DNA of 64,000 bases from an uncultured Candidatus Binatia bacterium (GCA_965242525.1 OZ251459.1:2137515-2201514), one strand, 5' to 3'; shown: positions 2,211 through 47,586, numbered from the stretch's first letter. A program made the numbers and translations. Notes: a model not told the origin generated them from the letters alone.

Positions 2211-5674
<3,464 letters not shown>

Positions 5675-5873
5675 GGCTCAAGGATAGCGGCTACGGAGGC
5701 CACATGCAATTTGTGAGGAAGGACGCATCGAAGGGACGGGTCGCCAATGATCGGAGCTAGCCATGGTGGAAAGCGGACCAGTCTCCATGACCTCAGTGGT
5801 CTTGCGGGACGGCTGAAGGATATCGAAACCGAACTTCGGAACGTCGAGAAGGAGGTCGAGTCCGCACGCGACC

Positions 5874-6923
<1,050 letters not shown>

Positions 6924-6989
6924 CGCGCCGCCGCGGTCCGGGACGCGGGCGCCCTCCCCCTCCGACGCCCTTTCCGCCGGGAACCTGAC

Positions 6990-8075
6990 ATGTTGCTCAT
7001 CGACAACGAGACCGTAGAGGAAATCCTCGACATGAAGGGGTGCATCGCGGCCCTGGAGACCGGCTACCGGGACCTGCTGGCGCAGCGTGCGGTGTACCGG
7101 CCCCGCATCGACCTGTACGTGCCCCAGGAAGAGCCCCACCGGATGTACCGTTGGGGCACCATGGAGGGCGCCAGCCGTTCCTTCGGGGTCTTCGCCATCC
7201 GCATGAAGTCCGACATGCTGGAGTGGCCCGAGGGCCGAACCGTGGAGAAATACTGCATGGAGCCCGGGACCTACTGCGGCCTCGTGCTGGTCTTCTCCGC
7301 GCAGAACGCCGAACCCCTGGCCATCATCAACGACGGCGTCATCCAGCACATGCGGGTGGGCGCCTGCGCCGGCCTCGCGGCCCGGTACCTGGCCCGGGAG
7401 GACGCATCGGTGGTGGGGATGCTGGGCTCCGGCGGCATGGCGGAGACCTACCTCCGGGCCTTCGCCGAAGTCCGGGAACTCCGGGAGGTCAAGGTCTATA
7501 GCCCCACCCCCGCCAACCGGGAAGCCTATGCGCGCAAGATGAACGAACTCCTCGGCATACCCGTGACCCCGCGCGAGACCGTGGAGGAAGTGGTGCGGGG
7601 CTCGGACATGGTGGCCACCTGCACCGATTCGGTCAGGGTGGTGGTAGAAGAACCCGGATGGGTGGAGGACGGCGCCTTCCTCACCTGCGTCCGCAGCAAC
7701 GAATGGAACCCGAAGGTCCTCGACCGCTGCGGCCTCACCGTCAAGCTCGGGCGCGGCACCATCCATACTCTGGACGAAGGCATGCAGCGCATCGCCGGGT
7801 ACGCCTCCTACGTGGCCGGCAGCGACCGCGAGACCGCCCGCATCGTCGCTCCCGGAGTCGATCTGTTCGCCGGCCAGTACCCCTTGCTCACCGAGGTCAT
7901 GGACGGCGCCGCCCCGGGCCGGAGCAACGATTCGCAGGTGGCCTTCTTCCTGAACGACGGCACCCAGGGACTGCAATTCGCCTCGGTGGCAGGCTACGTG
8001 GTGCACCGGGCGCGGGATCTCGGGGCGGGCCGGGAGATCCCCAGGGAATGGTTCACCCAGGACATACGCGATTAG
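6990..8075 (+). CDS. ornithine cyclodeaminase / mu-crystallin family protein
   Basis: 361 aa with OCD/mu-crystallin-like N-terminus ('MLLIDNETVEEILDMKGCIAALETGYRDL') and Rossmann region ('VGMLGSGGMAETYLRAF'). Confidence 0.75.
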   Translation: MLLIDNETVEEILDMKGCIAALETGYRDLLAQRAVYRPRIDLYVPQEEPHRMYRWGTMEGASRSFGVFAIRMKSDMLEWPEGRTVEKYCMEPGTYCGLVLVFSAQNAEPLAIINDGVIQHMRVGACAGLAARYLAREDASVVGMLGSGGMAETYLRAFAEVRELREVKVYSPTPANREAYARKMNELLGIPVTPRETVEEVVRGSDMVATCTDSVRVVVEEPGWVEDGAFLTCVRSNEWNPKVLDRCGLTVKLGRGTIHTLDEGMQRIAGYASYVAGSDRETARIVAPGVDLFAGQYPLLTEVMDGAAPGRSNDSQVAFFLNDGTQGLQFASVAGYVVHRARDLGAGREIPREWFTQDIRD

Positions 8076-8123
8076 CCGTACGGAAACTCTCGCGGGGGAA
8101 CGGCAATCCAGGGAGAGAGACTC

Positions 8124-9113
8124 ATGCTCAAGGTGATTCCGGTGGAAGAAGCGGTGGGGATGCGCCTGGCCCACGACATTACCGAGATCATACCGGGGGG
8201 CCACAAGGGTCCCCGGTTCAAGCGGGGGCACCTGATCGCCCAAGAGGACGTGCCAAGGCTGCTGGACGTGGGCAAGGCCCACATCTACATCATGGAGCTG
8301 GCCCCGGACGAACTGCACGAAGAAGACGCCGCCCTCCGGCTGGCCCGGGCCGCCGCGGGAGGCGGCCTCAGGCTCTCGGACCCGAGCGAGGGCCGGGTCA
8401 ACCTGGTGGCGGAAGGGGACGGACTGCTGGAGGTGGACCAGGATCGGCTGTTCCGCTTCAACGAGTTGGGGGACCTGATCCTGGCTACGCTGCGTTCGGG
8501 GGAGTTCGTCCGGGAAGGCACGGTGGTGGGAGGCACGCGCACCATCCCGGTGGTGGTGAAGGAAGACTTGGCGGCCCGGGCCGAAGCCCTGTGCAAGGAC
8601 GGGCCCATCGTATCAGTGGCGGCCATGCCCGCACGGAAGGTCTTCCTGCTGGTGACCGGAAGCGAGGTCTTCACCGGCCGCATCGTGGACGGCTTCGAGC
8701 CGGTGGTGCGCAAGAAGGTGGAGCGCATGGGCTCGACCCTGGAGCCCGCGGTCCTGGCCCCGGACGACCCGGACGTCATCGCCGGCCACATCCGGGAGTT
8801 CGCCGCCGGGGGCGCCGACGTCATCCTGGTGAGCGGCGGCATGTCCGTGGACCCTGACGACCTCACCCCCGAAGGCATCCGCCGAAGCGGCGCGGACGTG
8901 GTGTCCCACGGCTTCCCGGTGCTCCCCGGGTCCATGTTCCTCATGAGCTACCTGGGAGACGTGCCGGTCCTCGGCCTGTCCGGGTGCGTCCTCCACGACC
9001 CGATCACCGTCTTCGATTTCATGCTGCCCAAACTGCTGGCGGGCGCCCGTGTCACCCGCTGCGGCATCCTGCGCATGGGCCACGGCGGACTCCAGAAGAA
9101 GCACGACCACTGA
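8124..9113 (+). CDS. molybdopterin-binding (MoCF-biosynthesis / MoeA-like) domain protein
   Basis: C-terminal half resembles the MoCF_biosynth domain ('VFLLVTGSEVFTGRIVD...DVILVSGGMSVDPDDLT'). It lies downstream of moaA. Confidence 0.5.
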   Translation: MLKVIPVEEAVGMRLAHDITEIIPGGHKGPRFKRGHLIAQEDVPRLLDVGKAHIYIMELAPDELHEEDAALRLARAAAGGGLRLSDPSEGRVNLVAEGDGLLEVDQDRLFRFNELGDLILATLRSGEFVREGTVVGGTRTIPVVVKEDLAARAEALCKDGPIVSVAAMPARKVFLLVTGSEVFTGRIVDGFEPVVRKKVERMGSTLEPAVLAPDDPDVIAGHIREFAAGGADVILVSGGMSVDPDDLTPEGIRRSGADVVSHGFPVLPGSMFLMSYLGDVPVLGLSGCVLHDPITVFDFMLPKLLAGARVTRCGILRMGHGGLQKKHDH

Positions 9114-9130
9114 CACCGGACAGGCGTCAA

Positions 9131-9157
9131 CAAACGTCAATACATCGTATTGACGTT
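9131..9157. promoter_or_regulatory. perfect 11-bp inverted repeat AAACGTCAATA-N5-TATTGACGTTT, candidate operator of the downstream RHH gene
   Basis: Read directly: caAAACGTCAATAcatcgTATTGACGTTTac, about 30 nt upstream of the RHH-protein start. Confidence 0.5.
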
Positions 9158-9185
9158 TACCCGTGTTTCCTGTATCCAACTCATC

Positions 9186-9677
9186 GTGGCGAAGACTGGA
9201 CAGTTGCAGGTTCGCGTCAGTGCGGACGAGAGGGAGCGTATCAGGCAGCGCGCGGAAAACGCGGGCATGACCGTATCCGAATGGGTGCTCAGGCAGTTGC
9301 TGCCGCCCGTCGAGGATGAGTTCCAGGGGCTTTGCCTCGGTCTTGCGGAGCGGCCCGAATTCCGCACCCACGCCCTGGCCCATCTCCATGACTTCTTCCG
9401 GCGTCTGGGCGAACGGGAATTCTCCCTGGCCGTGCGGTACCCGCCGCAGGTGGAGTTGGCGCCGTTCGAGGCAAATTACGTGGCGGCGATGGTGGAGTAC
9501 GCCGCGGTCCTCAAGGGGGCGCCGATGCCGGATTGGACCCGGGACGTGCCGCCCCTGGAGACGCCCTGGTTCGCCGCCCCCGAACGGAGCTTGCGGCTGC
9601 ATCTGCTCACGCAGTCGCCGCCGCCGTTCCGCCGGCGCAACCTGTTCGTGGACGCCAGCGTCGGGAGCCGGGCATGA
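9186..9677 (+). CDS. ribbon-helix-helix (CopG/Arc-like) DNA-binding protein, putative antitoxin/regulator
   Basis: 'AKTGQLQVRVSADERERIRQRAENAGMTVSEWVL' is a typical RHH beta-strand plus helices. The listed TTG at 9150 lies inside the palindrome, so GTG 9186 is a more plausible start. The stop overlaps the next gene as ATGA. Confidence 0.55.
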   Translation: MAKTGQLQVRVSADERERIRQRAENAGMTVSEWVLRQLLPPVEDEFQGLCLGLAERPEFRTHALAHLHDFFRRLGEREFSLAVRYPPQVELAPFEANYVAAMVEYAAVLKGAPMPDWTRDVPPLETPWFAAPERSLRLHLLTQSPPPFRRRNLFVDASVGSRA

Positions 9678-10240
9678 CGCCGCTGGCCCGAGAGGACATC
9701 CTCCGTTTGCTGCAACGGCTGAACGACGAGTTGGCGCGCGATGGCGTGTGCGGGGAACTCTACCTGGTCGGGGGCGCGGTGTTGTGCCTTGCCTTCGACG
9801 CTCGCCGGACGACGGTGGACCTCGACGGGTTCTTTCGTCCATCGCGCGAGATGCGTACGGCCGCGCGACGAGTCGCCGCGGCCGAAGGGCTGAACGACGA
9901 CTGGCTGAACGACAGCGCCAAGGGGTTTCTCAGTAGCAAGGGGGACTTCCGACAACATCTGGCGCTGTCCAACCTGCGCGTGCTCACGGCCAGCCCGGAA
10001 TACCTGCTGGCGATGAAGTGTCTGGCCATGCGCCTCGGCGGAGAGTTCCACGACCGGGAGGACGTCAGGTTCCTGCTCCGTTACCTGAACGTCACGCAGC
10101 AGGACGCAGCCCTGGAGATGGTGAGCCGCTACTACCCGCCGGAAAAGATCCCGCAGAAGACGTTCTACGCGCTCGCGGAAATGGTCGAAGACCTGGCGGC
10201 AGCACAGGGTGTTGCACCCGCTTCGACCGGCAAGTGTTGA
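9676..10240 (+). CDS. nucleotidyltransferase-fold protein (possible toxin partner of the RHH gene)
   Basis: ATG 9676 overlaps the upstream stop (ATGA). 'GELYLVGGAVLCLAFDARRTTVDLDGFF' resembles the Pol-beta/MNT 'GG..x(n)..DxD' motif. Confidence 0.45.
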
Positions 10241-10368
10241 TACTCCGTCAGGTGTAGAGCGTCGTCCGACTACAAGGGTCCGAAAGGCCGAAGTAGTAGG
10301 CGGGCCCGTCCCGTTGAACGGGTCCCTGCGATGCAACCCGGGGCCGAGGTGCTATACTGTTTGTCGCC

Positions 10369-11961
10369 ATGCGCTTCTTCAACACGTCGGGCCCCGTGGT
10401 CGCCGAAGACCACTACCGCATCCCGCCGCTGCAACGGGTGGATCTGGGCGAGGTCCTGGAGTTGATCCGGAGCAAGCGCTACTTCGTGCTCCATGCCCCC
10501 CGACAGACCGGCAAGACCTCCGTCCTGCTCGCCTTGCGGGACCTGCTGAACAGCGGCGCGGAGGGGGATTTCCGTTGCGTTTACGGAAACGTCGAGGCCG
10601 GTCAGGCTGCCCGGGAGGACGTGGGAGAGGCCATGCGCGCCGTCCTGGGCGAACTGGCGTCCAGGGCACTATCCTTGCACGACGAGTTCCCGGACGGCGC
10701 TTGGCCCGACATCCTCGCAAGGTCGGGTCCCCACGGAGCTCTCGGAGAGACCTTGACCCGCTGGTGTCGGGCGGACCCTCGCCCTCTGGTGCTGCTCATG
10801 GACGAGGTCGATTCCCTGGTGGGCGACACGCTCATCTCCGTGCTCCGCCAGTTGCGCGCAGGCTACGACCGGCGTCCCGAGGAGTTTCCGCACAGCGTGG
10901 TGTTGTGCGGCGTGCGTGACGTGCGCGACTACCGCATCCGGTCGAGCTCGGAGAACGCGGTGGTGGCCGGGGGCAGCGCGTTCAACATCAAGGCCGAATC
11001 CCTGCGCCTCGGGGACTTCACGGAAGCCGAAGTGCGCGCGCTGCTCAGCCAGCACACCACGGAGACCGGGCAGGCGTTCACCCCGGCGGCGCTGGATGCG
11101 GTCTGGCGGCAGACCCGCGGGCAGCCGTGGCTGGTCAACGCGCTCTGCCACCAGGCCTGCTTCCGCAACGAGGCCGGGCGCGACCGCTCCCACGCCATCA
11201 CCCACGACGACGTCCTCGACGCCCAGGAACAACTCATCCTGCGCCGGGAGACCCACCTCGACCAACTCGCCGACAAGCTCCGGGAAGACCGCGTCCGCCG
11301 GGTGGTGGAGCCGCTGCTGACCGGCGGCGAGCCCCGGTACGGTTCGCGGGACCTGGAGTACGTGCGCGACCTGGGCTTGGTCACACGGGAGTCCCCGCCG
11401 CGCATGGCCAACCCCATCTACGCCGAGGTGGTGCCGCGGGAACTGTCCCACGTGGTCCAGGACAGCCTGGAACAGGAAGTGGCCTGGTACGTGGACGCCG
11501 AGGGCGGCCTCGACATGGACAAGCTGCTCGCCGCCTTCCAGACGTTCTTCCGGGAACACTCGGAACACTGGCTGGGGCGCTTCGACTACGCCGAAGCCGG
11601 TCCGCAACTCATCCTGCAGGCATTCCTCCAGCGGGTCGTGAACAGCGACGGCCGCGTCGAGCGGGAATACGGCCTGGGAAGGGGACGAACCGACCTGCTC
11701 ATCCTCTGGCCCCGGAAAGGCCGGGAAGCACCGGAACCCGCCGTGGACAAGTTCGTCATCGAGTGCAAGGTCCTGCACAAGAGCCTGGAGCAGAGCATCC
11801 GCGAAGGCCTGGAGCAGACCGCGGGCTACATGGACCGTTGCGCCGCCCAGGCCGGCCACTTGGTGGTCTTCGACCGAAACCCGGACAGGCAGTGGGACGA
11901 AAAGATCTTCCGCCGGGACGAGTCCGTGGACGGGCGGGCGGTTACCGTGTGGGGGATGTAG
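10369..11961 (+). CDS. predicted AAA-ATPase (PF09820-like) with C-terminal PD-(D/E)XK nuclease-like domain (DUF1703-like)
   Basis: N-terminal 'MRFFNTSGPVVAEDHYRIPPLQR...FVLHAPRQTGKTS' and C-terminal 'GRTDLLILWP...KFVIECKVL' (D..E.K). A paralogue lies at 53841..55439. Confidence 0.75.
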   Translation: MRFFNTSGPVVAEDHYRIPPLQRVDLGEVLELIRSKRYFVLHAPRQTGKTSVLLALRDLLNSGAEGDFRCVYGNVEAGQAAREDVGEAMRAVLGELASRALSLHDEFPDGAWPDILARSGPHGALGETLTRWCRADPRPLVLLMDEVDSLVGDTLISVLRQLRAGYDRRPEEFPHSVVLCGVRDVRDYRIRSSSENAVVAGGSAFNIKAESLRLGDFTEAEVRALLSQHTTETGQAFTPAALDAVWRQTRGQPWLVNALCHQACFRNEAGRDRSHAITHDDVLDAQEQLILRRETHLDQLADKLREDRVRRVVEPLLTGGEPRYGSRDLEYVRDLGLVTRESPPRMANPIYAEVVPRELSHVVQDSLEQEVAWYVDAEGGLDMDKLLAAFQTFFREHSEHWLGRFDYAEAGPQLILQAFLQRVVNSDGRVEREYGLGRGRTDLLILWPRKGREAPEPAVDKFVIECKVLHKSLEQSIREGLEQTAGYMDRCAAQAGHLVVFDRNPDRQWDEKIFRRDESVDGRAVTVWGM

Positions 11962-11994
11962 ATATCGAGAGGTCAACACAATGACCGACAGGTA

Positions 11995-12023
11995 TTGACA
12001 CTTCACGGAGTATGGAGTATAGG
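11995..12023 (+). promoter_or_regulatory. sigma70-like promoter of the low-GC operon: -35 TTGACA, 17-nt spacer, -10 TATAGG
   Basis: ggtaTTGACActtcacggagtatggagTATAGGcc sits immediately at the GC-content drop. It is followed by an AGGAG Shine-Dalgarno (12060-12064) and an in-frame GTG at 12072. Confidence 0.45.
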
Positions 12024-12071
12024 CCCCGACTAACTGATGCTTGGCCGCTTTCCCATGACAGGAGTTGTACC

Positions 12072-13106
12072 GTGACAGAACACCACAAAATGCTCGAGGT
12101 GAATCAAATTGACTTCGACACTGAAAATCCCAGGATAAAAATGGCGTTGGAGAAATACGGTAGCCGTCTGAATGCCGAGCGCATTCATTTTGCCTTGCGC
12201 TCCGCTACCGAAGGTTCCAGCGGTACTTCGTCCTACTCCAGCCTGAGAGATTCAATACGCTCTAGTCATGGGGTCATCGCGCCAATCATCGTAAGACCTA
12301 AAGGCCACAGCTACGTCTGCATCGACGGAAATACCCGCCTGGCGATCTACAAACAGTTTCAAAGAGAAGAAATAGAAGGAGATTGGAGCAAAATCAAAGC
12401 CATTGTTCTCGATCATGCCGAACAGCGCGATATCGAAACCGTCCGTGTATCGGCACACCTGGTTGGCGCCCGAGAATGGCCTGCCTACGAAAAGGCAAGG
12501 TATCTTCATTATCTCCGTAATCAGCAGTGTATGGATTACAGCGAAATGATAGCTCTCTGTGGCGGCAACAAAAACGAGATCGAACGTCAGATCGACGCAT
12601 ACCACGACATGAACTCATATTACCGAGATAAGGTGGACGACACCGCTTTTCGTATCGACCGTTATAGCGGATTCGTAGAACTTCAACGGCCGCAGGTCAA
12701 GCAAGCCATTTTTGACGCAGAATTGGACCTAGAGGATTTTGGCGAGTGGATCCGCGATGGCAAAATATACCGCTTGGAGGATGTCCGCAAGTTGCCGAAA
12801 ATCCTTCGAGACGATGAAGCCAAGCGGGTTTTCCTTGAAGGTGGACCTCGCTCAATAGAAGACGCCATGAAGGTTCTCGATCAGAGAACAGGGATCGGGG
12901 ACTCTACGGACAAGGGGCAGACCAGAGTAGAACATGCCACCATCTACGAACTCGCGGACGCGCTCAGCCGGCGAATCAATGACATGCCCTATTCGCAAGT
13001 ACGGGAATTGCGGGAGAAGACTGACGACGACACGGCAGATCAAATTACGCGATTAGAAGATCTATCCGTCAGGCTACGTAATTTGCTGAACGATGTCACA
13101 GAGTGA
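12072..13106 (+). CDS. ParB/Srx-superfamily (DGQHR/DndB-like) protein, paralogue 1
   Basis: 'IAPIIVRPKGHSYVCIDGNTRLAIYKQF' fits the ParB N-terminal domain pattern (PI.VR...Y..IdG.hR..A). The listed ORF start 12012 lies upstream of the predicted -10, so SD+GTG at 12072 is preferred. The 3' end overlaps the next gene by 14 nt. Confidence 0.6.
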   Translation: MTEHHKMLEVNQIDFDTENPRIKMALEKYGSRLNAERIHFALRSATEGSSGTSSYSSLRDSIRSSHGVIAPIIVRPKGHSYVCIDGNTRLAIYKQFQREEIEGDWSKIKAIVLDHAEQRDIETVRVSAHLVGAREWPAYEKARYLHYLRNQQCMDYSEMIALCGGNKNEIERQIDAYHDMNSYYRDKVDDTAFRIDRYSGFVELQRPQVKQAIFDAELDLEDFGEWIRDGKIYRLEDVRKLPKILRDDEAKRVFLEGGPRSIEDAMKVLDQRTGIGDSTDKGQTRVEHATIYELADALSRRINDMPYSQVRELREKTDDDTADQITRLEDLSVRLRNLLNDVTE

Positions 13107-13536
13107 AACACACAGAAACCTGGTCCTCCAGGTCGCAAGAGCAATTGAGGACCGTTATGCCCAAATATCCGTCATTACCGATTTGCAGCAGAACCCTGGA
13201 GATACAGTGCCACCAATGATCTGCGGCCACCGCCCTGATGTTTACGCCTACGAAGAAGTACAGCGCCTCTGCATCGTTGCAGAGGCCAAGACCGATTCGG
13301 ACCTCGACAATCTTCATACGCAACGCCAGTTGATGGCCTTTATCAACTATCTTAGCGACAGAGAAAAGAGCTTGTTCATCTTGTCGGTAAAGGGCACCAA
13401 GTCCGACCACGGGAAGACTCTGCTGCGGTTCACTCATCGACTTCTGGCTGTAAAGAACGTGCCTCTTGAAATTTTCGATGGTCATGATTTCTGGTCCTTC
13501 AACCTACAGGACGAAACTACGTGGCATTTACTTTGA
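13093..13536 (+). CDS. small hypothetical protein with PD-(D/E)XK-like motif
   Basis: 147 aa. 'RPDVYAYEEVQRLCIVAEAKTD' gives a D..(E)AK arrangement typical of the restriction-endonuclease fold. The gene is translationally coupled on both sides. Confidence 0.4.
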   Translation: MSQSETHRNLVLQVARAIEDRYAQISVITDLQQNPGDTVPPMICGHRPDVYAYEEVQRLCIVAEAKTDSDLDNLHTQRQLMAFINYLSDREKSLFILSVKGTKSDHGKTLLRFTHRLLAVKNVPLEIFDGHDFWSFNLQDETTWHLL

Positions 13537-15020
13537 GAAAACCACCCAGCCTGGTGGCAAGACACGAAGCCTATGCCTATCAGCTCGATGCTTTAAGAGC
13601 CGTAAAGGCGCTTCCTTATGCCGCCATATTCCACGAGCAAGGGCTCGGTAAAACAAAGATAGCTATTGACTTGATGTTGCTGTGGCTATCCAATGACTTA
13701 GTGGACACTGTATTTGTGATTACAAAAAAGAGCTTGGTTCAAAATTGGTTTGATGAACTTACCTCTCACTCATACGTAACTCCTCGAATTCTTTCCGATA
13801 ACCGTCGCGAGAACAGCCTCGCACTAAACTCACCTGTATTGATCTATATTATGAACTACGAAGCAATCTCGGCAAATCTTCATTTGATCGAGGATTTTCT
13901 CATTACCTGTAGGGTTGGCGCAATCCTTGACGAAAGTCACAAGATCAAAAACCCGCAAGCAAGGGCATCGATCTGCCTTCACTCTATCGCCGACAAATTC
14001 TCGCGTAAGGTGATAATGACGGGAACGCCAGTGGCGAACCGTCCTTATGATCTTTGGTCGCAAGTCAAGTTTTTGGACGGAGGACAGTCTCTCGGGTCTT
14101 CTTTTGCTGATTTCAAAGCAACCTTTGATCTTCCCGGTCAGCCAAGTTGCACACAGGAATACAGTGAACGACTATCCAATATCATTGACAAGATTAGACA
14201 TTTCTCGGTGCGAGAGACAAAGCGTACCGTAGAATTGAGCCTACCCGACAAGACAATACTAACTCATTTCGTGAACATGGCGCCTCGCCAAGCGGTAATA
14301 TATGACTCCTACGTGACCGAAGCGGCCTACGAGATCAACCTTGGGGACGACCTGATTCTGGACAACGCCGAAGACATCCTGAAACGCCTGTTACGCCTGG
14401 TGGAGTGCGCCTCTAATCCTTTCTTGGTTGACAAGAGATACTCTGAGGTGCCAGGGAAGTTCTCCGAACTCTTGAAGCTTCTCCAGGAAATTGACTTACG
14501 AGCACATAAAGTGGTTTTGTGGACAGGGTTTGTTGATAATGTAGAATGGATAACTGCCCAATTGAAGGAGTTTTCGCCCTTGAAGGTTCATGGTCGTATG
14601 TCCATTGAGCAACGGAACCAGTCCATAAGCAGATTCAAAACCCACCAGAAACACCGTGTCTTTGTAGCCACGCCTGGCTCTGCAAAGGAAGGCTTAACTT
14701 TGACAGTAGCCAATCATGCTGTTTTCTACGATCGAAGCTTCAGTCTTGATGATTACCTCCAGGCGCAAGACCGAATTCATAGAATCTCTCAAACTGAAGA
14801 CTGCTATGTACACAACTTGATCGCCAAACAAACCGTGGATGAGTGGGTGGATGCTTTGCTAAACGCAAAACATATCGCTGCACAGCTATCTCAAGGTGAT
14901 ATTTCTCAAGCTGAGTTTGAGTCTTCCTTTACCTTCAATTTAGCCGAAATACTGGCAGACATATTAACTTCCAGGTCGCTCGCTTCCAGGAGTCAGGAGA
15001 ACGGAAAATGGCCGAAATAA
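13521..15020 (+). CDS. compact SNF2/SWI2-family ATPase (helicase-like translocase)
   Basis: Walker A 'GLGKT', DExH-like 'ILDESHKIKN', motif III 'MTGTPVANRPYDLW', motif VI 'QAQDRIHRISQ'. A GTG start overlaps the upstream gene. Confidence 0.85.
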   Translation: MAFTLRKPPSLVARHEAYAYQLDALRAVKALPYAAIFHEQGLGKTKIAIDLMLLWLSNDLVDTVFVITKKSLVQNWFDELTSHSYVTPRILSDNRRENSLALNSPVLIYIMNYEAISANLHLIEDFLITCRVGAILDESHKIKNPQARASICLHSIADKFSRKVIMTGTPVANRPYDLWSQVKFLDGGQSLGSSFADFKATFDLPGQPSCTQEYSERLSNIIDKIRHFSVRETKRTVELSLPDKTILTHFVNMAPRQAVIYDSYVTEAAYEINLGDDLILDNAEDILKRLLRLVECASNPFLVDKRYSEVPGKFSELLKLLQEIDLRAHKVVLWTGFVDNVEWITAQLKEFSPLKVHGRMSIEQRNQSISRFKTHQKHRVFVATPGSAKEGLTLTVANHAVFYDRSFSLDDYLQAQDRIHRISQTEDCYVHNLIAKQTVDEWVDALLNAKHIAAQLSQGDISQAEFESSFTFNLAEILADILTSRSLASRSQENGKWPK

Positions 15021-16051
15021 AGATCCTCAAGGAATCGGTGCAGGTAGTCAAGGAAGACTATGTGCATATCTACGAACTGAAGTTCCTGAAAGACAACCCT
15101 CGCGTATACGCGTGTACACATGAGTACCCGAATTTCGATGACTTGATGGAAGAGCAACAGCAAGACGTCATTTTCGATAAACTAAAGGAAGAGACGAGCG
15201 TCAAAAATCTCCGTCCTGAGATAGAACGGCATGGGGGCCTTATGGAGCCGATACTGGTTCGGCTCGATACACGCCAAGTCATTGAAGGCAATTCTCGCCT
15301 CGCTGTATACCGCCTGCTGTACGAAGGGACGAGGGAGAGCGACTGGGAATATATTCCGTGCAGCATGGTAAGTGGGCTAACAGAGCGTCAACAGGCCGCT
15401 TTTCTCAACGAAGTCCATGTGAAGGGCAAGACTCAATGGTCCCCCTACGAAAAGGCCAACTTCGCCTATGTCCGCAGGGAACGAGGTTGGAGTCTCAGTG
15501 ACATCGCCGAACTTTTCGGAGAGTCAGTAAATACGATTAGAACCCGAGTAAAGGTCATTGAAACCATGAAAGGGAACTCGGATGGCACAAAATCTCATTT
15601 CAGTCATTACGATGTACTAGTTCGAATACCTGCTATAGAGAAGGAGCTTTCTCAAAATGACGAGCTGCGCAATCTTCTTTACGCGGAGATCAAGAAGATC
15701 GATCCCAGAGACGACAAGAGCGCGAATGAGGACGAAACTGGCGAAGAGGACGAAAGCGGTTTCACCGCGCAGGAACTCAGGAGGAAACTGCCCGCGATCA
15801 TCGAGAAACCTAAGGTTTTGCGAAAATATATCGAAGGTGAAATAGATTTGGACGAAGGCTACCAGCGTGCGAAGATCAGCAACGCGGAAACCCGAGTTCG
15901 GAAAGCAAAAGGACTTTTGGAGGACGTTTCTCGAGAAGAGGTGACAAGGCTCGAACAGAATCGCTTCAATGCGTTCAAACAGGATGTACGGAGGATATCC
16001 CGCGTAGTGGAGCGCCTCAATGAGATCACAAAGGACCGTGAGACACCATGA
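15008..16051 (+). CDS. ParB/Srx-superfamily (DGQHR-like) protein, paralogue 2
   Basis: 'MEPILVRLDTRQVIEGNSRLAVYRLL' parallels the motif in the 12072 gene. ATG 15008 overlaps the SNF2 stop (15020). The 3' end overlaps the next start as ATGA. Confidence 0.55.
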   Translation: MAEIKILKESVQVVKEDYVHIYELKFLKDNPRVYACTHEYPNFDDLMEEQQQDVIFDKLKEETSVKNLRPEIERHGGLMEPILVRLDTRQVIEGNSRLAVYRLLYEGTRESDWEYIPCSMVSGLTERQQAAFLNEVHVKGKTQWSPYEKANFAYVRRERGWSLSDIAELFGESVNTIRTRVKVIETMKGNSDGTKSHFSHYDVLVRIPAIEKELSQNDELRNLLYAEIKKIDPRDDKSANEDETGEEDESGFTAQELRRKLPAIIEKPKVLRKYIEGEIDLDEGYQRAKISNAETRVRKAKGLLEDVSREEVTRLEQNRFNAFKQDVRRISRVVERLNEITKDRETP

Positions 16052-17688
16052 TTCCGTACAATGTACTGCTAGTCGAGCCCGGATACTTCAACAAGTATCC
16101 GCCGCTTGGGTTAATGAAGTTGGCAGCATATCATGGCGCTCGCGGTCGTGGCGACCGGGTCCGCTTCGTCAAAGGTGAGGATCGTGAAGTGTCGCTGGAG
16201 TCGTGGGATCGAGTTTATGTAGCTACATTGTTCAGTTTTGAATGGGCGCGTACTGCCGCGGCAATTGATTTTGCCATCCGGACCGTGCGCGGCCAGACAG
16301 AACGGGTATTTGTAGGCGGCATCGCCGCATCGCTTATGCATGAGCACTTTGAGAACGAACCACGATGGTCGGGTGTCCGTTTTATTAAAGGACTATTGAC
16401 TGATCCGCCGGCAGTTGCGCTGCGTTTATCAGCAGAAGATTGTGATTTTGGCTTTGACGACCACCAGGGACCCCCTATCGAGGAGTTGATTCCAGACTAC
16501 TCCATTCTCGATCAGATCGAATATTCCTATCCTGTCCGAGACGCCTACTTTGGATACGCTTCACGTGGTTGCGTTCGGAAATGTGCGTTCTGTGGCGTTC
16601 CTAAACTGGAAGGCGCTCAGCGCGAAATGCCTTCCCTTACTTCCTTGGTCAAAGGAATCGAAGATGCATACGGACCCAAGAAGGACCTGGTGTTGATGGA
16701 TAATAACGTCACGGCATCCCTGCGATACAAGGAGATAATTGCTGAAATCCGGGATCTCGGCTTCACGCCAGGCGCTAGGCTCGAACGCAGTGGGCGACCG
16801 CCGATCAAGCGACGCGTGGATTTCAATCAAGGCGTTGACGCGAGGATTCTTGCCAAGTCCCCGCTCTTTCTTAGGGAAATGGCAAAAATCTGTATCAGTC
16901 CTCTTCGTATCGCCTTTGACCACCTTGGGGTACGAAAAGTATATGAGACTTCTGTTCGAATGGCAGCACACCACGGAATCACCTCCTTATCAAACTATAT
17001 GCTCTATAACTTTATGGACACTCCCGCAGATCTATACGACCGCATGCGTTTGAATATTACCCTCAATAACGACTTGGGCATCCGTATTTGGTCATTTCCG
17101 ATGCGTTATCAGCCAGTCTATCTCAAGGACCGTTCCCACGTAGGCAAAAATTGGACGAGATACCAACTACGCTCCTTTCAGATTATGCTGCAGGCGACTC
17201 GAGGGGTTGTTAGCGGCAACCCTTCCTTCTTCATGCGGGCTTACGGAGAAGACAAACGCGACTTCGAACAACTTTTGAGTTTGCCACATGCTTTCATTTT
17301 TCACCGTGATTACTACGAGAGAGGACCAGGACGAGGCATCCGAGATGACTATGAGACGGCACGACGGCGCCTTTCCAAGTCTCAAGAACAGGAATTGCTT
17401 GGTTTGCTGGAAGGCTCGGACAGTGTACCGGGTTTTCGAAGGGATCGGCTTCGCTCTTTGGTAGCCGACCCTGGCATTGACACATCTATTCGTAGAGTCA
17501 TTCGATTTCACTTGCTGGATACAAAAGAGAAACCGCAGAACCCCATTCTGCCGCTCTTCCCCGACCTTAATCCTGATCCAGCTTTCCCTGACGACGATGA
17601 ACTTGTCGAGGACGCCGGACTCTTTGATCACGAACACGCCTTGGAACAATCTGAAAAGGCCATCAAAGGAAACCATCATGGTCAATGA
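16048..17688 (+). CDS. radical SAM enzyme with N-terminal cobalamin(B12)-binding-like domain (class B radical SAM-like)
   Basis: CX3CX2C in 'YASRGCVRKCAFCGV'. The N-terminus 'VLLVEPGYF..YPPLGLMKLAAYHGARG..VRFV' resembles the B12-binding domain of class B radical SAM proteins. Confidence 0.75.
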   Translation: MIPYNVLLVEPGYFNKYPPLGLMKLAAYHGARGRGDRVRFVKGEDREVSLESWDRVYVATLFSFEWARTAAAIDFAIRTVRGQTERVFVGGIAASLMHEHFENEPRWSGVRFIKGLLTDPPAVALRLSAEDCDFGFDDHQGPPIEELIPDYSILDQIEYSYPVRDAYFGYASRGCVRKCAFCGVPKLEGAQREMPSLTSLVKGIEDAYGPKKDLVLMDNNVTASLRYKEIIAEIRDLGFTPGARLERSGRPPIKRRVDFNQGVDARILAKSPLFLREMAKICISPLRIAFDHLGVRKVYETSVRMAAHHGITSLSNYMLYNFMDTPADLYDRMRLNITLNNDLGIRIWSFPMRYQPVYLKDRSHVGKNWTRYQLRSFQIMLQATRGVVSGNPSFFMRAYGEDKRDFEQLLSLPHAFIFHRDYYERGPGRGIRDDYETARRRLSKSQEQELLGLLEGSDSVPGFRRDRLRSLVADPGIDTSIRRVIRFHLLDTKEKPQNPILPLFPDLNPDPAFPDDDELVEDAGLFDHEHALEQSEKAIKGNHHGQ

Positions 17689-19186
17689 AGCAAGTGCTAT
17701 GACGACGACGACACGGCAGTCACTTGACTCGATTGGCAGCGACATTCTCAACCTAATTACCCTTGGAATGTACAATAACCCTCTTGCCATCTATCGCGAG
17801 TACATCCAAAACGCTGCGGATGCGCTTGCACGTTCTGGAAGTCGCACTGACGGCCAAGTGGCAATCCATTTTGACAAGTCCGCATCGTCCATAACGATTC
17901 GAGACACCGGACCAGGCCTATCACCGAAGTCCGCAAGACGCGCACTTTTGCCCATTGCCAAGAGCGAAAAGGAATTCCAGGCTGAACGCGGTTTTCGCGG
18001 CATCGGTCGCTTGTCCGGACTGGCTTTCGGCAAATCCGTCACCTTTCTTACGCGAGCACGAGGAGACCAGCCAGCAACAAGTGTCAAATGGGACGGACTG
18101 AAACTTCGGACAAACATTGACCAGCGCAAACCGATTGAACGGGTACTCAAGGAAGCTGTTACGGTAGAACCGCTAACAAGACCAGATTTCCCGCCACACT
18201 TCTTCGAGGTCCAAGTGAACGGTATCGCGCGACACGCAGCGGGACTGATACTCAATCGAGACGCGGTCCGGACGTACATTGGCGAAGTATGTCCTGTCCC
18301 TATTTCCCGATCCTTCCCCTTTGCAACCCGGATCCTCGCTTTATTCCAAGCGGAAGCTCCTTTATTCGCGCTGAACCTTGTCTTGGATGGCACCCCCGGC
18401 CCTGTCACACGCCCCTTTGACGACGCGATTCGATTTTCGGATGACAAGCTAGACAAGTTCACGGAGTTTCAGGAAATCAGGATCCCATCGGTAGACCGAG
18501 AAGGACATGCGGCAGTTGGCTGGATTGCACATTCAAATTATTTGGGCGCTATTCCCAAGGAACACGCCATTCGAGGTGTTCGAGCACGTGCGGGCAACAT
18601 ACAGATTGGGAACGAAGCTGTCTTTGATCACCTTTTTTCTGACGATCGCTTTAATCGCTGGTGTGTTGGCGAACTCCATATCATGGACTCGCGTATCATC
18701 CCCAATGCTCGCCGTGACTACTTTGAGCCGGGTCCACACATCCGAAACCTGGAGAACCAGCTTATCGCTGTATTTCGAGAAGTAGTTGCGCGATGCAGGA
18801 AGGCATCCGCAGAACGCAACAGGGAACGAAGGTTGCAGTCCGGATTGCGGGAAATCGAGGATGCTTATCACTTGGCACAATCCGGCTATTTGTCCATGGG
18901 AGATTCTCAAGCCTTGATCGCGCGCGGTCTCAACCGTCTCCAAGACTTCCGGAACAACTGGAGCGAGATGAACGCCTGTGCAAAGACGGAATTGGAAAAC
19001 CTTGAATCGAACCTTCAAAAATTCCAGCCTTCACATAGTCATCTACCCGTGGCTAATTTGTCAAAGTTGGAAGCGGCAACGTACAGAAAGCTTTTTCACG
19101 CTTTGGTAGAGACGTCCCCTTCCCCGCGCATTGCCAAAGAAACAATCGAAGCTGTCCTTGTCCACCTACAGCGCAGGGTCGCATGA
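17678..19186 (+). CDS. MORC/MutL-like GHKL (HATPase_c) ATPase
   Basis: Bergerat-fold boxes: N-box 'REYIQNAADAL', G1 'ITIRDTGPGL', G2 'FRGIGRLSGLAFG'. ATG 17678 overlaps the radical SAM stop (17686-17688). Confidence 0.75.
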   Translation: MVNEASAMTTTTRQSLDSIGSDILNLITLGMYNNPLAIYREYIQNAADALARSGSRTDGQVAIHFDKSASSITIRDTGPGLSPKSARRALLPIAKSEKEFQAERGFRGIGRLSGLAFGKSVTFLTRARGDQPATSVKWDGLKLRTNIDQRKPIERVLKEAVTVEPLTRPDFPPHFFEVQVNGIARHAAGLILNRDAVRTYIGEVCPVPISRSFPFATRILALFQAEAPLFALNLVLDGTPGPVTRPFDDAIRFSDDKLDKFTEFQEIRIPSVDREGHAAVGWIAHSNYLGAIPKEHAIRGVRARAGNIQIGNEAVFDHLFSDDRFNRWCVGELHIMDSRIIPNARRDYFEPGPHIRNLENQLIAVFREVVARCRKASAERNRERRLQSGLREIEDAYHLAQSGYLSMGDSQALIARGLNRLQDFRNNWSEMNACAKTELENLESNLQKFQPSHSHLPVANLSKLEAATYRKLFHALVETSPSPRIAKETIEAVLVHLQRRVA

Positions 19187-19199
19187 GAGGAAACGGCGT

Positions 19200-20684
19200 T
19201 CAGAGTTTCTCTACGCGGCTTGCCCTCGAACGCAGAAAGTTGAAATCGGCGTCGTCACCGACATCCGGCATCGCGAGCAAGCGTTCGATAAAAGTCTCCG
19301 GCTGACGCTGCTTCCGCTGTGTCTTCAAGCCGCCCCGCCATTCCAGCAGGACGACTTCTTCTCGAAGCTGTTCGCCGGTCACCGTCGAAGGGCGTGTCCG
19401 AAAGAGGTCGATGCCCATGACCCGGTAGTGCAACGACCGGGCCAAGTCGGCCAGGAGTCGGCCCGTGGGGATACGGACCCGCAGATACGACGCCTGGTCG
19501 CCGACCACGTAGGCGAGCCTGGCCCCCGGCTTGAGGACGGCGCGGAGCGACGCGAGGTGTTTCGCCATGCCGCCGAAGTAGAGCCGCGTGACGCGCGGAT
19601 ACAACCGCTCGAAGCCGGAGGTCTTGCCCAACTCGATACGGCGCTTCTCGATGGCTTCGGCGATGTCCCGTATCTCGGCATGGTCGGCAACCTCACGATC
19701 GTCCGTGTCCGCCTTATAGACGCCCCGGGTGTTGGACCGGATCAGGTTCCGTTTCATGGACCGCAATTCCTGCCGGTCGCGCACCAGTCCCAGGATGACG
19801 GACTCCAACCGTGTGGTGCGCGTGTAGTCCTTTTCGTTGGGATACGGCGGGGAGGTGATCACGGTATCGACGGACCCCGGCTCCAGCGCTCGATGGATCG
19901 CGCGGGCGTCCGCCTCCACGACCCGGGACGGCGCGTCCGTCCGGCCCTTGAGGAGTTCCAGGTCGCCGACGATGGTTCGGAAGCAGTCGAGCCAGGCGTC
20001 GACGGCCGGCGCGTCGTCCTTGATCCGGCCCACGCCGACTTCGGGACCGAACTTCAGGTTCCCGATGCGCAGCACCAGCGCGTTGGCAAGCGCCAGGCGG
20101 CCATAGGGCCGCAGTTGCGGCCGGTCGTGCCGGTCCATGGCGTCCAGCAGGGTCAGCGTCTTGTGGAGGGGCAGCGGACTGATGGAGTCCTTCAGCAGCA
20201 GTTTCGACCGGTCGGGGGGAAGACCCTGCAACACGGGTGGTCCGCTCCCGTTCGCGGCGAAGAGCGGAAGCCCCGCGGCCTCCCGGATGCCCTGCCGTTC
20301 CAGCGTCCTTCGCGCCGCCGCCGCAACCCGACGGGAATAGTCCGAAAGCGCCGCCGGGTCGGCCGACCAATCGACCTTCACCGAACTCGCAAAAGACCCC
20401 ATGGGGTTCGACTCGACGCCCACGCTGGGAATGCCGAGTTTCTTGCACTCCACCAACGTCGTGCCCGTGCCGCAGAAGGGGTCCAGGACCGTATGGGAGC
20501 GGTCCACGCCGAGCCGTTCCATGTAGTCCCTTACCAAGTGGGGCGGGAACGACAGGACGAACCGATACCATTGATGGGCCGGACGGTCTTCAGGCCGCAG
20601 CCTGTTCCGGTCGCCTTGGGTTCCGCCGGTGTCGGCAACCGCGGCCCGGCCGCTGCGCGTATCGGAAATCAGATCCGCCATCGG
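19200..20684 (-). CDS. SAM-dependent amino-methyltransferase, probably a DNA N6-adenine/N4-cytosine methyltransferase
   Basis: Motif I 'LDPFCGTGTTLV' and motif IV 'ITSPPYP' are separated by ~215 aa. The likely start is 'MADLISD' at 20684. The gene is convergent on the low-GC operon (stops 13 nt apart). GC is host-like. Confidence 0.55.
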   Translation of the reverse strand, partial: PMADLISDTRSGRAAVADTGGTQGDRNRLRPEDRPAHQWYRFVLSFPPHLVRDYMERLGVDRSHTVLDPFCGTGTTLVECKKLGIPSVGVESNPMGSFASSVKVDWSADPAALSDYSRRVAAAARRTLERQGIREAAGLPLFAANGSGPPVLQGLPPDRSKLLLKDSISPLPLHKTLTLLDAMDRHDRPQLRPYGRLALANALVLRIGNLKFGPEVGVGRIKDDAPAVDAWLDCFRTIVGDLELLKGRTDAPSRVVEADARAIHRALEPGSVDTVITSPPYPNEKDYTRTTRLESVILGLVRDRQELRSMKRNLIRSNTRGVYKADTDDREVADHAEIRDIAEAIEKRRIELGKTSGFERLYPRVTRLYFGGMAKHLASLRAVLKPGARLAYVVGDQASYLRVRIPTGRLLADLARSLHYRVMGIDLFRTRPSTVTGEQLREEVVLLEWRGGLKTQRKQRQPETFIERLLAMPDVGDDADFNFLRSRASRVEKL

Positions 20685-20745
20685 AGTTCCTGGCCGAACG
20701 GGTCGAGGGAGTCCAGCCTTTCCATGGCAACACGTGCGAGAACCG

Positions 20746-21459
20746 TCAGTCCACCGGAACGCAGGTGACCTCCACCCGTCCGTCACCGTGCAGTCGAACC
20801 GCGTTGACCGTGCCGGCGTAGGTCGGAGACCCCGAGTAGTAGGCGGGCACCCCGTCTTCGCCCACGCGCACGGCGCGGTTCCAGTGGCCCAGAGCCACGT
20901 AGTCGGCGCGGCTGGCGGCCAAGTTCTCCTGCCGGATCAGCCACGAGCCCAGCAGCAGGCCCGCCCGGGGCGCGTCCTCCACGTAATGGCCGTGGGCCAC
21001 CGCCAACTGCCAGCGGGTGCGCCGCTCGGGCGGCTCGGGCAGGGGCATCATGTCCAGGTAGTCCACGTGGGGACGGCCCCATACCTCCAGGTCCAGCTCG
21101 GGGAAGCCGCTCCGGTCCTCGGTGAGGCCCAGCACGCGCACGTTACCCGCGCCGGCGAACTCGGACCGGCGATAGACCGAATCAGGAGTCAGGGGGTCGT
21201 GGTTGCCCGGCAGGACCACGATGGGGAGGCCGGAGTCGGCCATGACTCCGGCCGCGTCCTCGATGAACCGGGGACCCTGGCGGTTGTGGTCGAAGGTGTC
21301 CCCCGCCAGGATCACCAAGTCGGCGCCCTGGGCGCTCGCAATCGAGAGCACCTGTTGCAGCACCGGCAGGTTGCCGGAATCGTCTTCGTTCAGGACGCTG
21401 TCCGCGCCCAGGTGGAGGTCCGATGTGTGGACGACGAGGACTTCACGCGGTGCGTTCAT
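20746..21459 (-). CDS. calcineurin-like metallophosphoesterase (SbcD/Mre11-like fold)
   Basis: 'VLVVHTSDLHLG', 'LVILAGDTFDH', 'VVLPGNHD' metallophosphoesterase motifs. Likely start 'MNAPREV' with AGGGAG upstream. It lies directly upstream of the methyltransferase on the same strand. Confidence 0.7.
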   Translation of the reverse strand: MNAPREVLVVHTSDLHLGADSVLNEDDSGNLPVLQQVLSIASAQGADLVILAGDTFDHNRQGPRFIEDAAGVMADSGLPIVVLPGNHDPLTPDSVYRRSEFAGAGNVRVLGLTEDRSGFPELDLEVWGRPHVDYLDMMPLPEPPERRTRWQLAVAHGHYVEDAPRAGLLLGSWLIRQENLAASRADYVALGHWNRAVRVGEDGVPAYYSGSPTYAGTVNAVRLHGDGRVEVTCVPVD

Positions 21460-21661
21460 GCTGGCGGTTTCTCCCTTCCCGGTGCGCCGCGGCCTGCGGG
21501 GACGCGGCTCCGCGGGCCGCAAGCGCGTCCGTCCCGGGGGCCTGGACCCGCCGGACACCGAGGGCCTGCCGGACGGAGGCGCCCTCTTCCAACGGCATGT
21601 GGTCGGGAGCCCTGGCGCCGGCTGCGGGACGGAAACCGCTGCGGAAGGCCTGCGGCCCGGG

Positions 21662-43752: not shown

Positions 43753-44022
43753 ATGGAAAACATGGAAGACAGAGAGCTATTGAAACGCATCGAATTGAAT
43801 CCAGGGGTGATGGGAGGGAAGGCCGTCATCAAGGGCACACGTTTGACGGTGGAACACATCCTCAACCTGCTCGCCCACGGCGAGACCGTTGAAAAGATCA
43901 CGGCGGAGTACGACGGAATCGCCCAAGAAGACGTTTTGGCCTGCGTCCTGTTTGCCGCGAAAGCCCTGGGGGACACCACCTTCGCACCGTTGGCTGCAGA
44001 GACGCCTGGATGCGGTTCCTGA
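43753..44022 (+). CDS. DUF433-family antitoxin-like protein
   Basis: 'NPGVMGGKAVIKGTRLTVEHILNLLAHGETVEKITAEYDGIAQEDVLA' is the DUF433 signature. Confidence 0.6.
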   Translation: MENMEDRELLKRIELNPGVMGGKAVIKGTRLTVEHILNLLAHGETVEKITAEYDGIAQEDVLACVLFAAKALGDTTFAPLAAETPGCGS

Positions 44023-44363
44023 TAGACGAATGCGTTGGCCCCACGGTAGCGCAGTGGTTGCGACAAGAAGGGCACGACGTATTCTCCGTCTTCGAGGAGG
44101 CGCGCGGCGCAACCGACGAAGAACTCGTTCGCAAAGCGCACCGGGAGAACCGAATTCTCCTGACGACCGACAAGGATTTTGGCGAGAAAGCATTCCGAGA
44201 ACGCAGGTCGCACAGGGGGATTGTCTTGCTGAGGCTGCAAGACGAACGCCCAATGAACCAAGTGAGGGTCATTCGGCGCCTCCTACAGCTTTACGAAAAT
44301 CAACTGCCGGATCGATTCTCGGTAGTCACGGAGGCTGGCGTTCGGTTCGCCATGAACATGTAG
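44010..44363 (+). CDS. DUF5615 (PIN-like) toxin-like protein, partner of DUF433
   Basis: 'MRFLIDECVGPTVAQWLRQEGHDV...LLTTDKDF'. It overlaps the upstream gene. Confidence 0.6.
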   Translation: MRFLIDECVGPTVAQWLRQEGHDVFSVFEEARGATDEELVRKAHRENRILLTTDKDFGEKAFRERRSHRGIVLLRLQDERPMNQVRVIRRLLQLYENQLPDRFSVVTEAGVRFAMNM

Positions 44364-44403
44364 CGAGGCGCGTCCGATCGGATTTGCCTGAGCCGTTGAC
44401 GGC

Positions 44404-47024: not shown

Positions 47025-47036
47025 GGGCCACCGAAG

Positions 47037-47516: not shown

Positions 47517-47586
47517 ACACCGGCATCGCCGGGAACCTGAAGCGTCCGGGATCCAGCAATTGAGGACAGGATCGAGAAATCCGGCA

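Follow-up and report, generated by a model that had tools for sequence, protein, structure and literature searches.

We analysed a window of 64,000 nucleotides from an uncultured Candidatus Binatia bacterium (GCA_965242525.1 OZ251459.1:2137515-2201514), in which six co-directional open reading frames (ORFs), each overlapping the next, form a cassette at positions 12072-19186. Two of its genes, on either side of a nuclease-like and an SNF2 gene, encode proteins that we call ParB-A and ParB-B. Judged by their sequences and predicted structures, these are ancient paralogues that make up a distinct subfamily of the ParB/Srx superfamily, with a clamp-type domain plan and a nucleotide pocket rebuilt in the same way in both. 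As a whole, the cassette looks like an undescribed restriction-modification-like type carrying this new ParB subfamily, and literature text searches found no published description of it. Our preferred reading, to which we give a probability of about 0.45, is that it is a restriction-modification-like defence system whose radical S-adenosylmethionine (radical-SAM) module would mark host DNA, with ParB-A and ParB-B acting as hydrolysis-poor DNA loaders.

Two diverged ParB-like paralogues in one cassette

The original prediction, drawn from the sequence of the window, had proposed that the genes at 12072 and 15008 are diverged paralogues that share a core string and bracket the nuclease-like and SNF2 genes. 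Both ORFs lie on the plus strand and carry the strings as quoted (APIIVRPKGHSYVCIDGNTRLAIY in ParB-A, EPILVRLDTRQVIEGNSRLAVY in ParB-B), and the two predicted genes lie between them (Table 1). BLASTP aligned the two proteins with 28% identity over 128 aa (E 6e-14), and a comparison of their ortholog profiles with hhalign confirmed the paralogy (probability 98.4%, E 5.7e-15). Because the hhalign match covers 235 columns, the relationship extends beyond the quoted core, into the helix-turn-helix (HTH) and the helical domain that follows it. A trace of it is visible even in the DNA, where AATGGCCTGCCTACGAAAAGGC (12475) and AATGGTCCCCCTACGAAAAGGC (15435) both code for W-P/S-x-Y-E-K-A. Of the predicted lengths, 347 aa for ParB-B was correct, whereas 364 aa for ParB-A corresponds to a longer ORF from the ATG at 12012. 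The start of ParB-A is the GTG at 12072, with AGGAG before it, which gives the 344-aa length of nearly all listed orthologs.

A 16-nt direct repeat, GACGACGACACGGCAG, is present in two exact copies, at 13023-13038 in the 3' part of the ParB-A gene and at 17704-17719 in the 5' part of the GHKL gene. The two copies are in different reading frames and contain (GAC)3, and the repeat may be a low-complexity coincidence.

Predicted folds match CTP-dependent DNA clamps

Searches of PDB sequences with single sequences and with profiles gave nothing significant for ParB-A or ParB-B (best ParB match E 0.2-0.7, the rest coiled coils), so a comparison of folds was needed. AlphaFold2 models were built from ortholog alignments, with a predicted local distance difference test (pLDDT) score of 74 for ParB-A and 84 for ParB-B. 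Compared with the PDB by Foldseek, both models gave as best matches the cytidine triphosphate (CTP)-dependent clamps ParB, Noc, Spo0J and KorB, with a probability of 1.0; by organism, these were ParB of B. subtilis and M. xanthus and Spo0J of T. thermophilus, together with Noc and KorB. The matches of ParB-A included 6sdk and 7bnk (ParB) and 7nfu (Noc), at E 3e-5 to 5e-4, and those of ParB-B included 7bnk, 7nfu, 1vz0 (Spo0J) and 8qa9 (KorB), at E 6e-6 to 7e-5. The structural alignments, 220-280 columns long, take in both the N-terminal domain and the HTH. SbnI, serine kinase and sulfiredoxin matched more weakly and over the N-terminal domain only, with E 0.06-0.4 for the sulfiredoxin structures. 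In a viral structure library, the named matches were almost all ParB/Spo0J-type proteins.

A combined profile of both proteins, aligned by hhalign to a ParB reference of B. subtilis, M. xanthus and T. thermophilus sequences verified against PDB chains, gave a probability of 94.4% (E 8.7e-8) over ParB-A residues 7-175. Together with the Foldseek probability, this places both proteins in the ParB/Srx superfamily at the level of fold, as had been proposed. They share a plan of an N-terminal nucleotide-pocket domain, an HTH and a helical C-terminal part that ends in a long helix, which is coiled-coil-like in both models. Family models alone would have been less informative: Pfam, NCBIfam and PADLOC gave sub-threshold matches only. 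Pfam ParB_N (PF02195) scored ParB-A at 18.9-19.1 bits, below the cutoff of 26.3 (E 1.4e-3 to 1.6e-3), and at E<=0.1 it matched 3/23 A members and 3/22 B members. ParB-like families of PHROG matched both proteins (E 1e-8 for ParB-A, 4e-10 for ParB-B), and no relative of ParB-A was found in a phage genome collection at E<=1e-8.

Unrelated folds would have spoken against the original prediction. Profile comparison showed the opposite, joining the two proteins to each other, and structure searches returned ParB-type matches for both. The original suggestion that the two might differ in role, with a (C)NTPase loader on one side and a DndB/DGQHR-like regulator on the other, was not supported, since both share the motif set and the plan of N-terminal domain plus HTH. 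The DndB model PF14072 matched none of 45 A and B members at E<=0.1, no NCBIfam DGQHR match was seen, and ParB, Noc and KorB are the closest structures for both proteins, all of which argues against a DndB/DGQHR identity. DpdB can likewise be set aside, with no NCBIfam or PADLOC match for either protein, as can sulfiredoxin: the latter is a single domain of about 100-140 aa with a GCHR motif and its catalytic Cys, whereas ParB-A and ParB-B have GNTR or GNSR without a motif Cys, are about 345 aa long and contain an HTH.

A rebuilt nucleotide pocket

In the M. xanthus protein (MxParB), Q52 and E93 are catalytic, R95 and R130 are needed for nucleotide binding, and R54, R94, E126 and N127 are needed for ring closure; rings still close in the Q52A and E93A variants, which reside longer on DNA (bioRxiv 10.1101/2021.05.05.442810). 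We mapped ParB-A and ParB-B onto MxParB with hhalign and read the pocket through these published roles. R54, G92 and R95 are kept in both proteins. Q52 and E93 are both replaced by Asn, R94 by Thr or Ser, R97 by Ala, E126 by Ala, Val or Ile, N127 by His, and R130 by Gly. In terms of the classical boxes, box I reads NPR for QPR, with its Arg retained and the catalytic Gln now Asn. Box II reads GN(T/S)RLA for GERRxRA, so that only the Gly and the second Arg (MxParB R95) remain, and box III reads (A/V/I)-H-(L/V)-x-G for ENLQR, with the His and Gly invariant; neither has the canonical form.

These substitutions are the same in ParB-A and ParB-B and are invariant across orthologs, giving the two lineages the common derived motifs NPR, GN[TS]RLA and H.xG...W..YEKA. 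Across 120 full-length representative clusters of the wider family, NPR is present in 117, [DE]GN[ST]R in 112 and H.xG...W in 112. In both lineages, the pocket motifs are the best-conserved positions, and the HTH helices and C-terminus are variable. Since the motifs are near-universal and best conserved in both lineages, we regard the pocket as functional but non-canonical.

With the canonical CTPase residues missing from both proteins, an ordinary CTP-hydrolysis cycle would not be expected and a canonical CTP-hydrolysing clamp is unlikely. The longer DNA residence of MxParB Q52A and E93A makes it reasonable, though unproven, to think of ParB-A and ParB-B as hydrolysis-poor, long-lived clamps. 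The loss of R130 could point to a different ligand, or to none. A heterodimeric A-B clamp, one of the possibilities originally raised, would fit the strict co-occurrence of the two genes (58/60 loci, see below) and the coiled-coil-like C-terminal helices.

Conservation, subtypes and spread of the cassette

Database searches returned 821 matches for ParB-A and 622 for ParB-B, of which the 120 best listed for each are 54-100% identical; orthologs of the two lie on the same contigs. In species-representative genomes, the six-gene order is retained in about 30/34 loci. The hosts comprise Nitrospirales, several Gammaproteobacteria, Poriferihabitaceae, Spongiihabitans, Binatia, Vicinamibacterales, Bryobacterales, Alphaproteobacteria, Chloroflexi and Rhodothermales, and two more contigs, from Candidatus Dadabacteria, were found by exact look-up of a ParB-A homolog. 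Going by record names, many of these genomes appear to be metagenome-assembled genomes of sponge or coral symbionts. When 1.84 billion representative proteins were searched with a profile, 1847 clusters (defined at 50% identity) matched at E<=1e-3, and at least 311 of these reached E<=1e-30. Of the best 150 representative clusters, 83 are A-like and 67 B-like, a clean division which indicates that the duplication is old and that both copies persist.

We also collected another 83 loci from metagenomes and viruses, many of them with no more than 34-41% identity. The order ParB-A, nuclease, SNF2, ParB-B is kept in 58/60 of those with enough downstream sequence. Where at least 3 kb was available on both sides, the radical-SAM gene is present in 21/21 loci and the GHKL gene in 16/21. 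The position of the radical-SAM unit varies: on the same strand it lies downstream in some loci and upstream in others, and elsewhere it is convergent, or divergent and upstream. Because the order of the first four genes is constant and the radical-SAM unit relocates, the cassette can be described as a four-gene module of fixed order joined by a radical-SAM module that moves. We considered a different split, suggested by locus L017, in which ParB-A would belong with the nuclease and SNF2 protein and ParB-B with the radical-SAM and GHKL proteins, and rejected it because ParB-B stays with SNF2 in the 58/60 other loci.

The cassette comes in three subtypes. Subtype 1, the type of the window, has a 546-aa radical-SAM protein and GHKL. 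In subtype 2, a short radical-SAM protein (452 aa) is encoded upstream of ParB-A, and ParB-B is followed by a protein whose conserved 228-aa domain is in some loci joined to an S24/LexA-like peptidase. This combination occurs in at least 13 loci, and an unknown protein of about 514 aa follows in most loci with enough sequence; the subtype was seen in L045 and in loci L097-L120. In L045 (IMG/VR UViG_2878915049_000003, 4210-14558), at a prophage end, the cassette is preceded by a reverse transcriptase and tail genes. Subtype 3 has a unit of DGQHR (DndB-like), radical-SAM and GHKL genes, with DGQHR directly upstream of radical-SAM, in at least 18 loci; the DGQHR gene, annotated in relatives as encoding a DGQHR domain-containing protein, is absent from the window. 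Subtype 3 is found on Rhizobium leguminosarum WSM1325 plasmid pR132505 (L129, NC_012854.1, 8983-17235) and on Roseomonas mucosa plasmid p2-AD3 (L130), where the three-gene unit is on the opposite strand. A Mesorhizobium sp. NZP2077 plasmid also encodes a ParB-A relative.

The cassette is an island of low guanine-plus-cytosine (GC) content. Its GC content in the window is 0.50, against 0.67-0.68 in the flanks, and it is lower than that of the flanks in 31/31 loci examined. No repeats flanking the island (target-site duplications or inverted ends) were found, and the window cassette contains no integrase gene. Canonical clamps have a ParA (or KorA) partner and a parS-like loading site; here, a ParA-type gene was seen neither in the window cassette nor in the loci checked for the six components, and the region upstream of ParB-A showed no conserved palindrome.

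Decayed or interrupted cassettes were observed in L021, L023, L027, L028, L036, L039 and L053, as ParB-A alone, as internal deletions or as insertions of several kb. These remnants in several genomes suggest that the cassette is frequently lost after acquisition.

Partner proteins

The 147-aa nuclease-like protein matched nothing in any library scanned. Its rPD...iaEAKT (PD...E-A-K) motif is invariant in 32 orthologs. The SNF2 protein consists of a helicase core, recognised by Pfam (SNF2-rel_dom E 5e-30, Helicase_C E 5e-16) and by PADLOC (ZorD E 2e-47, DpdE E 5e-37, DrmD E 5e-20, HmaA E 2e-16), with the conserved motifs GLGKT, LDES.K, TGTP and QAQDRIHRISQ.

In the radical-SAM protein, an invariant CxxxCxxC motif lies within SRGCVRKCAFCGVP. 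Pfam Radical_SAM matched 15/16 family members below threshold and the B12-binding model matched 2/16; the protein also matches phage family phrog_9298 (E 7e-38). Orphan phage homologues sit in DNA-metabolism regions. In Oscillospiraceae phage NatCom_21982, such a homologue is the immediate neighbour of a DNA methyltransferase gene, and in LoVEphage another is two genes away from the gene of a Dam methylase.

The GHKL protein is identified by Pfam HATPase_c_3 (E 1e-11), and it weakly resembles Hsp90 (NCBIfam HSP90-family model, E 5e-10) and the BbrUII/HgiDII restriction enzyme family (NCBIfam E 2e-6). Its Bergerat motifs, YREY.QNaaD, D.G.G and RGfRG.GR, are intact and conserved. The likely start is the ATG at 17678, which overlaps the radical-SAM stop codon; ortholog matches mostly begin near residues 68-86.

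On a human faecal scaffold (L042, MT836743.1, 454-8314), homologues of GHKL and then radical-SAM are adjacent, with two unknown proteins (383 and 575 aa) upstream, a Schlafen/AlbA_2 protein downstream, and no ParB-like or SNF2 genes. As the pair has other partner genes there, radical-SAM plus GHKL looks like a portable module.

Relation to known systems

Among the named defence systems of PADLOC-DB 2.0, the SNF2 core alone was recognised (ZorD, DpdE, DrmD), and the cassette belongs to none of them. With Zorya type II ZorD, DISARM DrmD and Hma it shares the SNF2 core only; their other signature genes are not present. GmrSD/BrxU type IV enzymes are single fused proteins with a DGQQR motif, in which a DUF262 ParB-like NTPase and an HNH-type or DUF1524 nuclease are joined. 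Here, in contrast, the proteins are separate, an HTH is present, and the partners are an SNF2 motor and a nuclease of PD-(D/E)xK type. Among the 50 top PDB matches listed for each model there is no GmrSD/BrxU chain. Those enzymes nevertheless follow a related logic, in that a nuclease acting in restriction is linked to a nucleotide-binding domain of the ParB superfamily (PMC12839542).

The Dnd and Ssp systems (DndB; SspE) likewise place ParB/Srx proteins beside DNA modification and restriction, and many related cassettes include a DGQHR gene. However, the window cassette lacks DndACDE, SspABCD and DndFGH, and ParB-A and ParB-B have the motif (D/E)GN(T/S)R and not DGQHR. Dpd resembles it as a multi-gene cassette of a ParB-superfamily protein with SNF2-like helicases and nucleases, and the window SNF2 protein matches DpdE. 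It differs in that the window cassette has no DpdA (TGT) or DpdC, its candidate modifier is a radical-SAM enzyme, and it has two clamp-type ParB paralogues. In Dpd, the ParB-like ATPase DpdB serves DNA modification (PMC12839542). ParB/Spo0J, Noc and KorB have the same ParB/Srx pocket domain followed by an HTH, and R54, G92 and R95 are common to them and to ParB-A and ParB-B; they differ in their catalytic Gln and Glu, both Asn here, in the nucleotide-binding R130, which is gone, in having a ParA partner and a recognisable parS, and in their helical C-terminal region.

A proposed restriction-modification-like mechanism and its alternatives

In the mechanism that we favour, the cassette would be horizontally mobile and act against foreign DNA in a restriction-modification-like way. 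The radical-SAM module, with GHKL and, where present, DGQHR, would mark the host's own DNA; DndB of the Dnd systems and the ParB-like ATPase DpdB of Dpd serve as analogies (PMC10853773, PMC12839542). ParB-A and ParB-B, probably as a heteromer, would together bind DNA as a loader or sensor, gated by nucleotide but poor at hydrolysing it, and would allow the SNF2 motor and the nuclease to act on DNA that lacks the mark. The orphan phage radical-SAM copies might play the part of orphan methyltransferases. We see a DNA modifier in the radical-SAM module because a DGQHR gene adjoins the radical-SAM gene in at least 18 loci, because orphan phage homologues adjoin DNA methyltransferase genes, because the radical-SAM and GHKL pair also has other partners, and because a ParB-like ATPase serves DNA modification in Dpd (PMC12839542). 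The horizontal and defence-like character is suggested by the low GC in 31/31 loci and by the neighbours, which include an AbiEii pair, Fic, DndB-domain and VapBC genes. A bolder version would make the cassette a new modification-dependent immunity, in which the radical-SAM enzyme installs an undescribed DNA mark and hydrolysis-dead heteromeric clamps scan without parS and direct the translocase and nuclease. We find this somewhat unlikely as it stands; the chance of such greater novelty is credible if the radical-SAM enzyme modifies DNA.

Several observations weigh against the mechanism that we favour. PADLOC is blind to the radical-SAM and nuclease proteins, gives GHKL only a marginal, unrelated match (REase_II, E 0.0097), and matches ParB-A and ParB-B weakly (PDC-M38A, E 2e-6; PD-Lambda-5_A, E 5e-5 to 7e-3). 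As it recognises only the SNF2 core, the label of defence is drawn from context. We know of no DNA-modification chemistry for this radical-SAM family, and the closest PDB sequences to the protein, RimO and MiaB, match around the Fe-S motif only. With R130 and two of the three GERR arginines gone, the proteins may no longer bind nucleotides at all, and the idea of nucleotide gating would then be undermined. In L017, ParB-B is found with radical-SAM and GHKL and not with SNF2. Finally, no conserved operator or parS-like palindrome was seen upstream of ParB-A in 26 loci.

The conservation of the pocket, the most conserved part of both lineages and with an invariant His in place of the ParB Asn, could also mean that ParB-A and ParB-B are themselves enzymes. 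Their His/Asn pocket would then cut DNA or consume or transfer nucleotides, and they would be effectors, or regulators of the nuclease. NTPase and nicking activities of ParB/Srx members are discussed in the literature (PMC10853773, PMC12839542), and SbnI, free serine kinase and sulfiredoxin are among the weaker structural matches of ParB-A. We nevertheless consider this unlikely, given that the best structural matches, over N-terminal domain and HTH, are the DNA clamps ParB, Noc and KorB and that the cassette already has a dedicated PD-(D/E)xK nuclease. We judge it quite improbable that the main task of one or both proteins is to regulate transcription of the operon in the manner of KorB or DndB, outside the effector machinery. 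Two regulators around enzymes, co-conserved at 58/60 loci and in overlapping ORFs, would be unusual, the upstream regions hold no conserved operator-like palindrome, and conservation is concentrated in the pocket, not the HTH. Such a role would account for the HTH in both proteins and for KorB among the best structural matches of ParB-B, and DndB has been described as a dnd gene regulator (PMC10853773).

A canonical CTP-hydrolysing heterodimeric clamp that partitions or maintains a mobile element would have the ParB-type architecture and the C-terminal helices suited to dimerisation that we see. Yet both catalytic residues and one nucleotide-binding arginine are replaced across the family, the cassette has no ParA, replication or integration gene, and it is an island in the chromosomes of many phyla, so that such a clamp is extremely improbable. 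Radical-SAM enzymes are known both to repair DNA (spore photoproduct lyase) and to make antiviral nucleotides (viperins). A role outside defence can therefore be imagined, either as a pathway of DNA repair or epigenetic marking, in which the radical-SAM enzyme would repair or mark DNA with the aid of the MutL/MORC-like GHKL ATPase, the translocase and the nuclease, or through a nucleotide-like molecule made by the radical-SAM enzyme and sensed by the ParB pockets. The rebuilt pocket could indeed bind a non-canonical ligand. Searches with the radical-SAM enzyme, however, revealed no significant similarity to viperin or photoproduct lyase, and the patchy horizontal spread, low-GC islands, plasmid and prophage-end sites and defence-island-like neighbours all point towards defence; we rate these non-defence roles as distinctly unlikely.

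ParB-type CTP switches are a model for DNA-sliding clamps, and a large natural ParB-like family in which both catalytic residues are replaced, and which occurs as an A/B pair around a nuclease and a motor, would show the role of the fold outside chromosome segregation. The radical-SAM enzyme to which the pair is so tightly linked, often together with a DndB-like protein, is uncharacterised and raises the possibility of new DNA modification chemistry. As plasmids of cultured Rhizobium and Mesorhizobium carry relatives, the system is directly testable.

Genomic neighbourhood and minor features

Table 1. Coordinates of the cassette genes, their motifs and neighbouring features in the window.
Feature	Position	Strand	Remarks
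NikA-like/ribbon-helix-helix antitoxin-like gene	9150-9677		overlaps next gene; host-like high GC
AbiEii-family nucleotidyltransferase gene	9533-10240		just upstream of island; high GC
AAA_22/AAA_35-type ATPase, 530 aa	10369-11961		abuts island; C-terminus PD-(D/E)xK-like (D...ECK) by eye
Possible sigma-70-type operon promoter, TTGACA-17 nt-TATAGG	11995-12023	+	putative; read by eye, weak
ParB-A, ParB/Noc/KorB-like protein, 344 aa	12072-13106	+	100% identical to a 344-aa database protein
ParB-A NPR	12126-12134
ParB-A GNTRLA	12327-12344
ParB-A His129	12456-12458
ParB-A YEKA	12486-12497
ParB-A HTH	about aa 156-184		followed by C-terminal long helix
Minimal PD-(D/E)xK nuclease-like protein, 147 aa	13093-13536	+	14-nt overlap with ParB-A end
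SNF2-family ATPase, 499 aa, helicase core only	13521-15020	+	Pfam, PADLOC
ParB-B, ParB-A paralogue, 347 aa	15008-16051	+	BLASTP, hhalign, Foldseek
ParB-B NPR	15095-15103
ParB-B GNSRLA	15287-15304
ParB-B His137	15416-15418
ParB-B YEKA	15446-15457
ParB-B HTH	about aa 157-181		followed by C-terminal long helix
Radical-SAM enzyme, 546 aa	16048-17688	+	N-terminal B12-binding-like or MTTase-like domain
GHKL (HATPase_c_3, Hsp90/MORC-like) ATPase, about 502 aa	17678-19186	+	Pfam, NCBIfam
N6/N4 DNA methyltransferase	19200-20786	-	high GC; converges on cassette
ORF resembling calcineurin-type metallophosphoesterase	20746-21558	-	by eye; overlaps methyltransferase; high GC

The neighbours of the cassette are typical of defence islands. 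In the window, the gene pair at 9150-10240 is probably a type IV toxin-antitoxin or abortive-infection pair, and the methyltransferase and the metallophosphoesterase-like ORF, which do not accompany the cassette in other genomes, may form a separate system. Both the methyltransferase and the AAA ATPase were considered as parts of the cassette and rejected on account of their host-like high GC and because neither is conserved beside it. Elsewhere, one locus (L001) has DUF433/DUF4926 genes, a Fic gene and a methyltransferase as neighbours, two others (L004, L005) have a 770-aa DndB-domain protein directly downstream, and on pR132505 the cassette is accompanied by VapBC pairs, an integrase and a PIN-domain gene.

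A consensus scan of the window for promoters and terminators gave background levels; it did not report the possible operon promoter at 11995-12023, as its rule demands a T at the end of the second hexamer. Further along the window, GC dips to 0.61-0.64 at 44-48 kb and to 0.56 at 50-52 kb, against about 0.68 elsewhere, and these dips within 44001-52000 may be other acquired islands.

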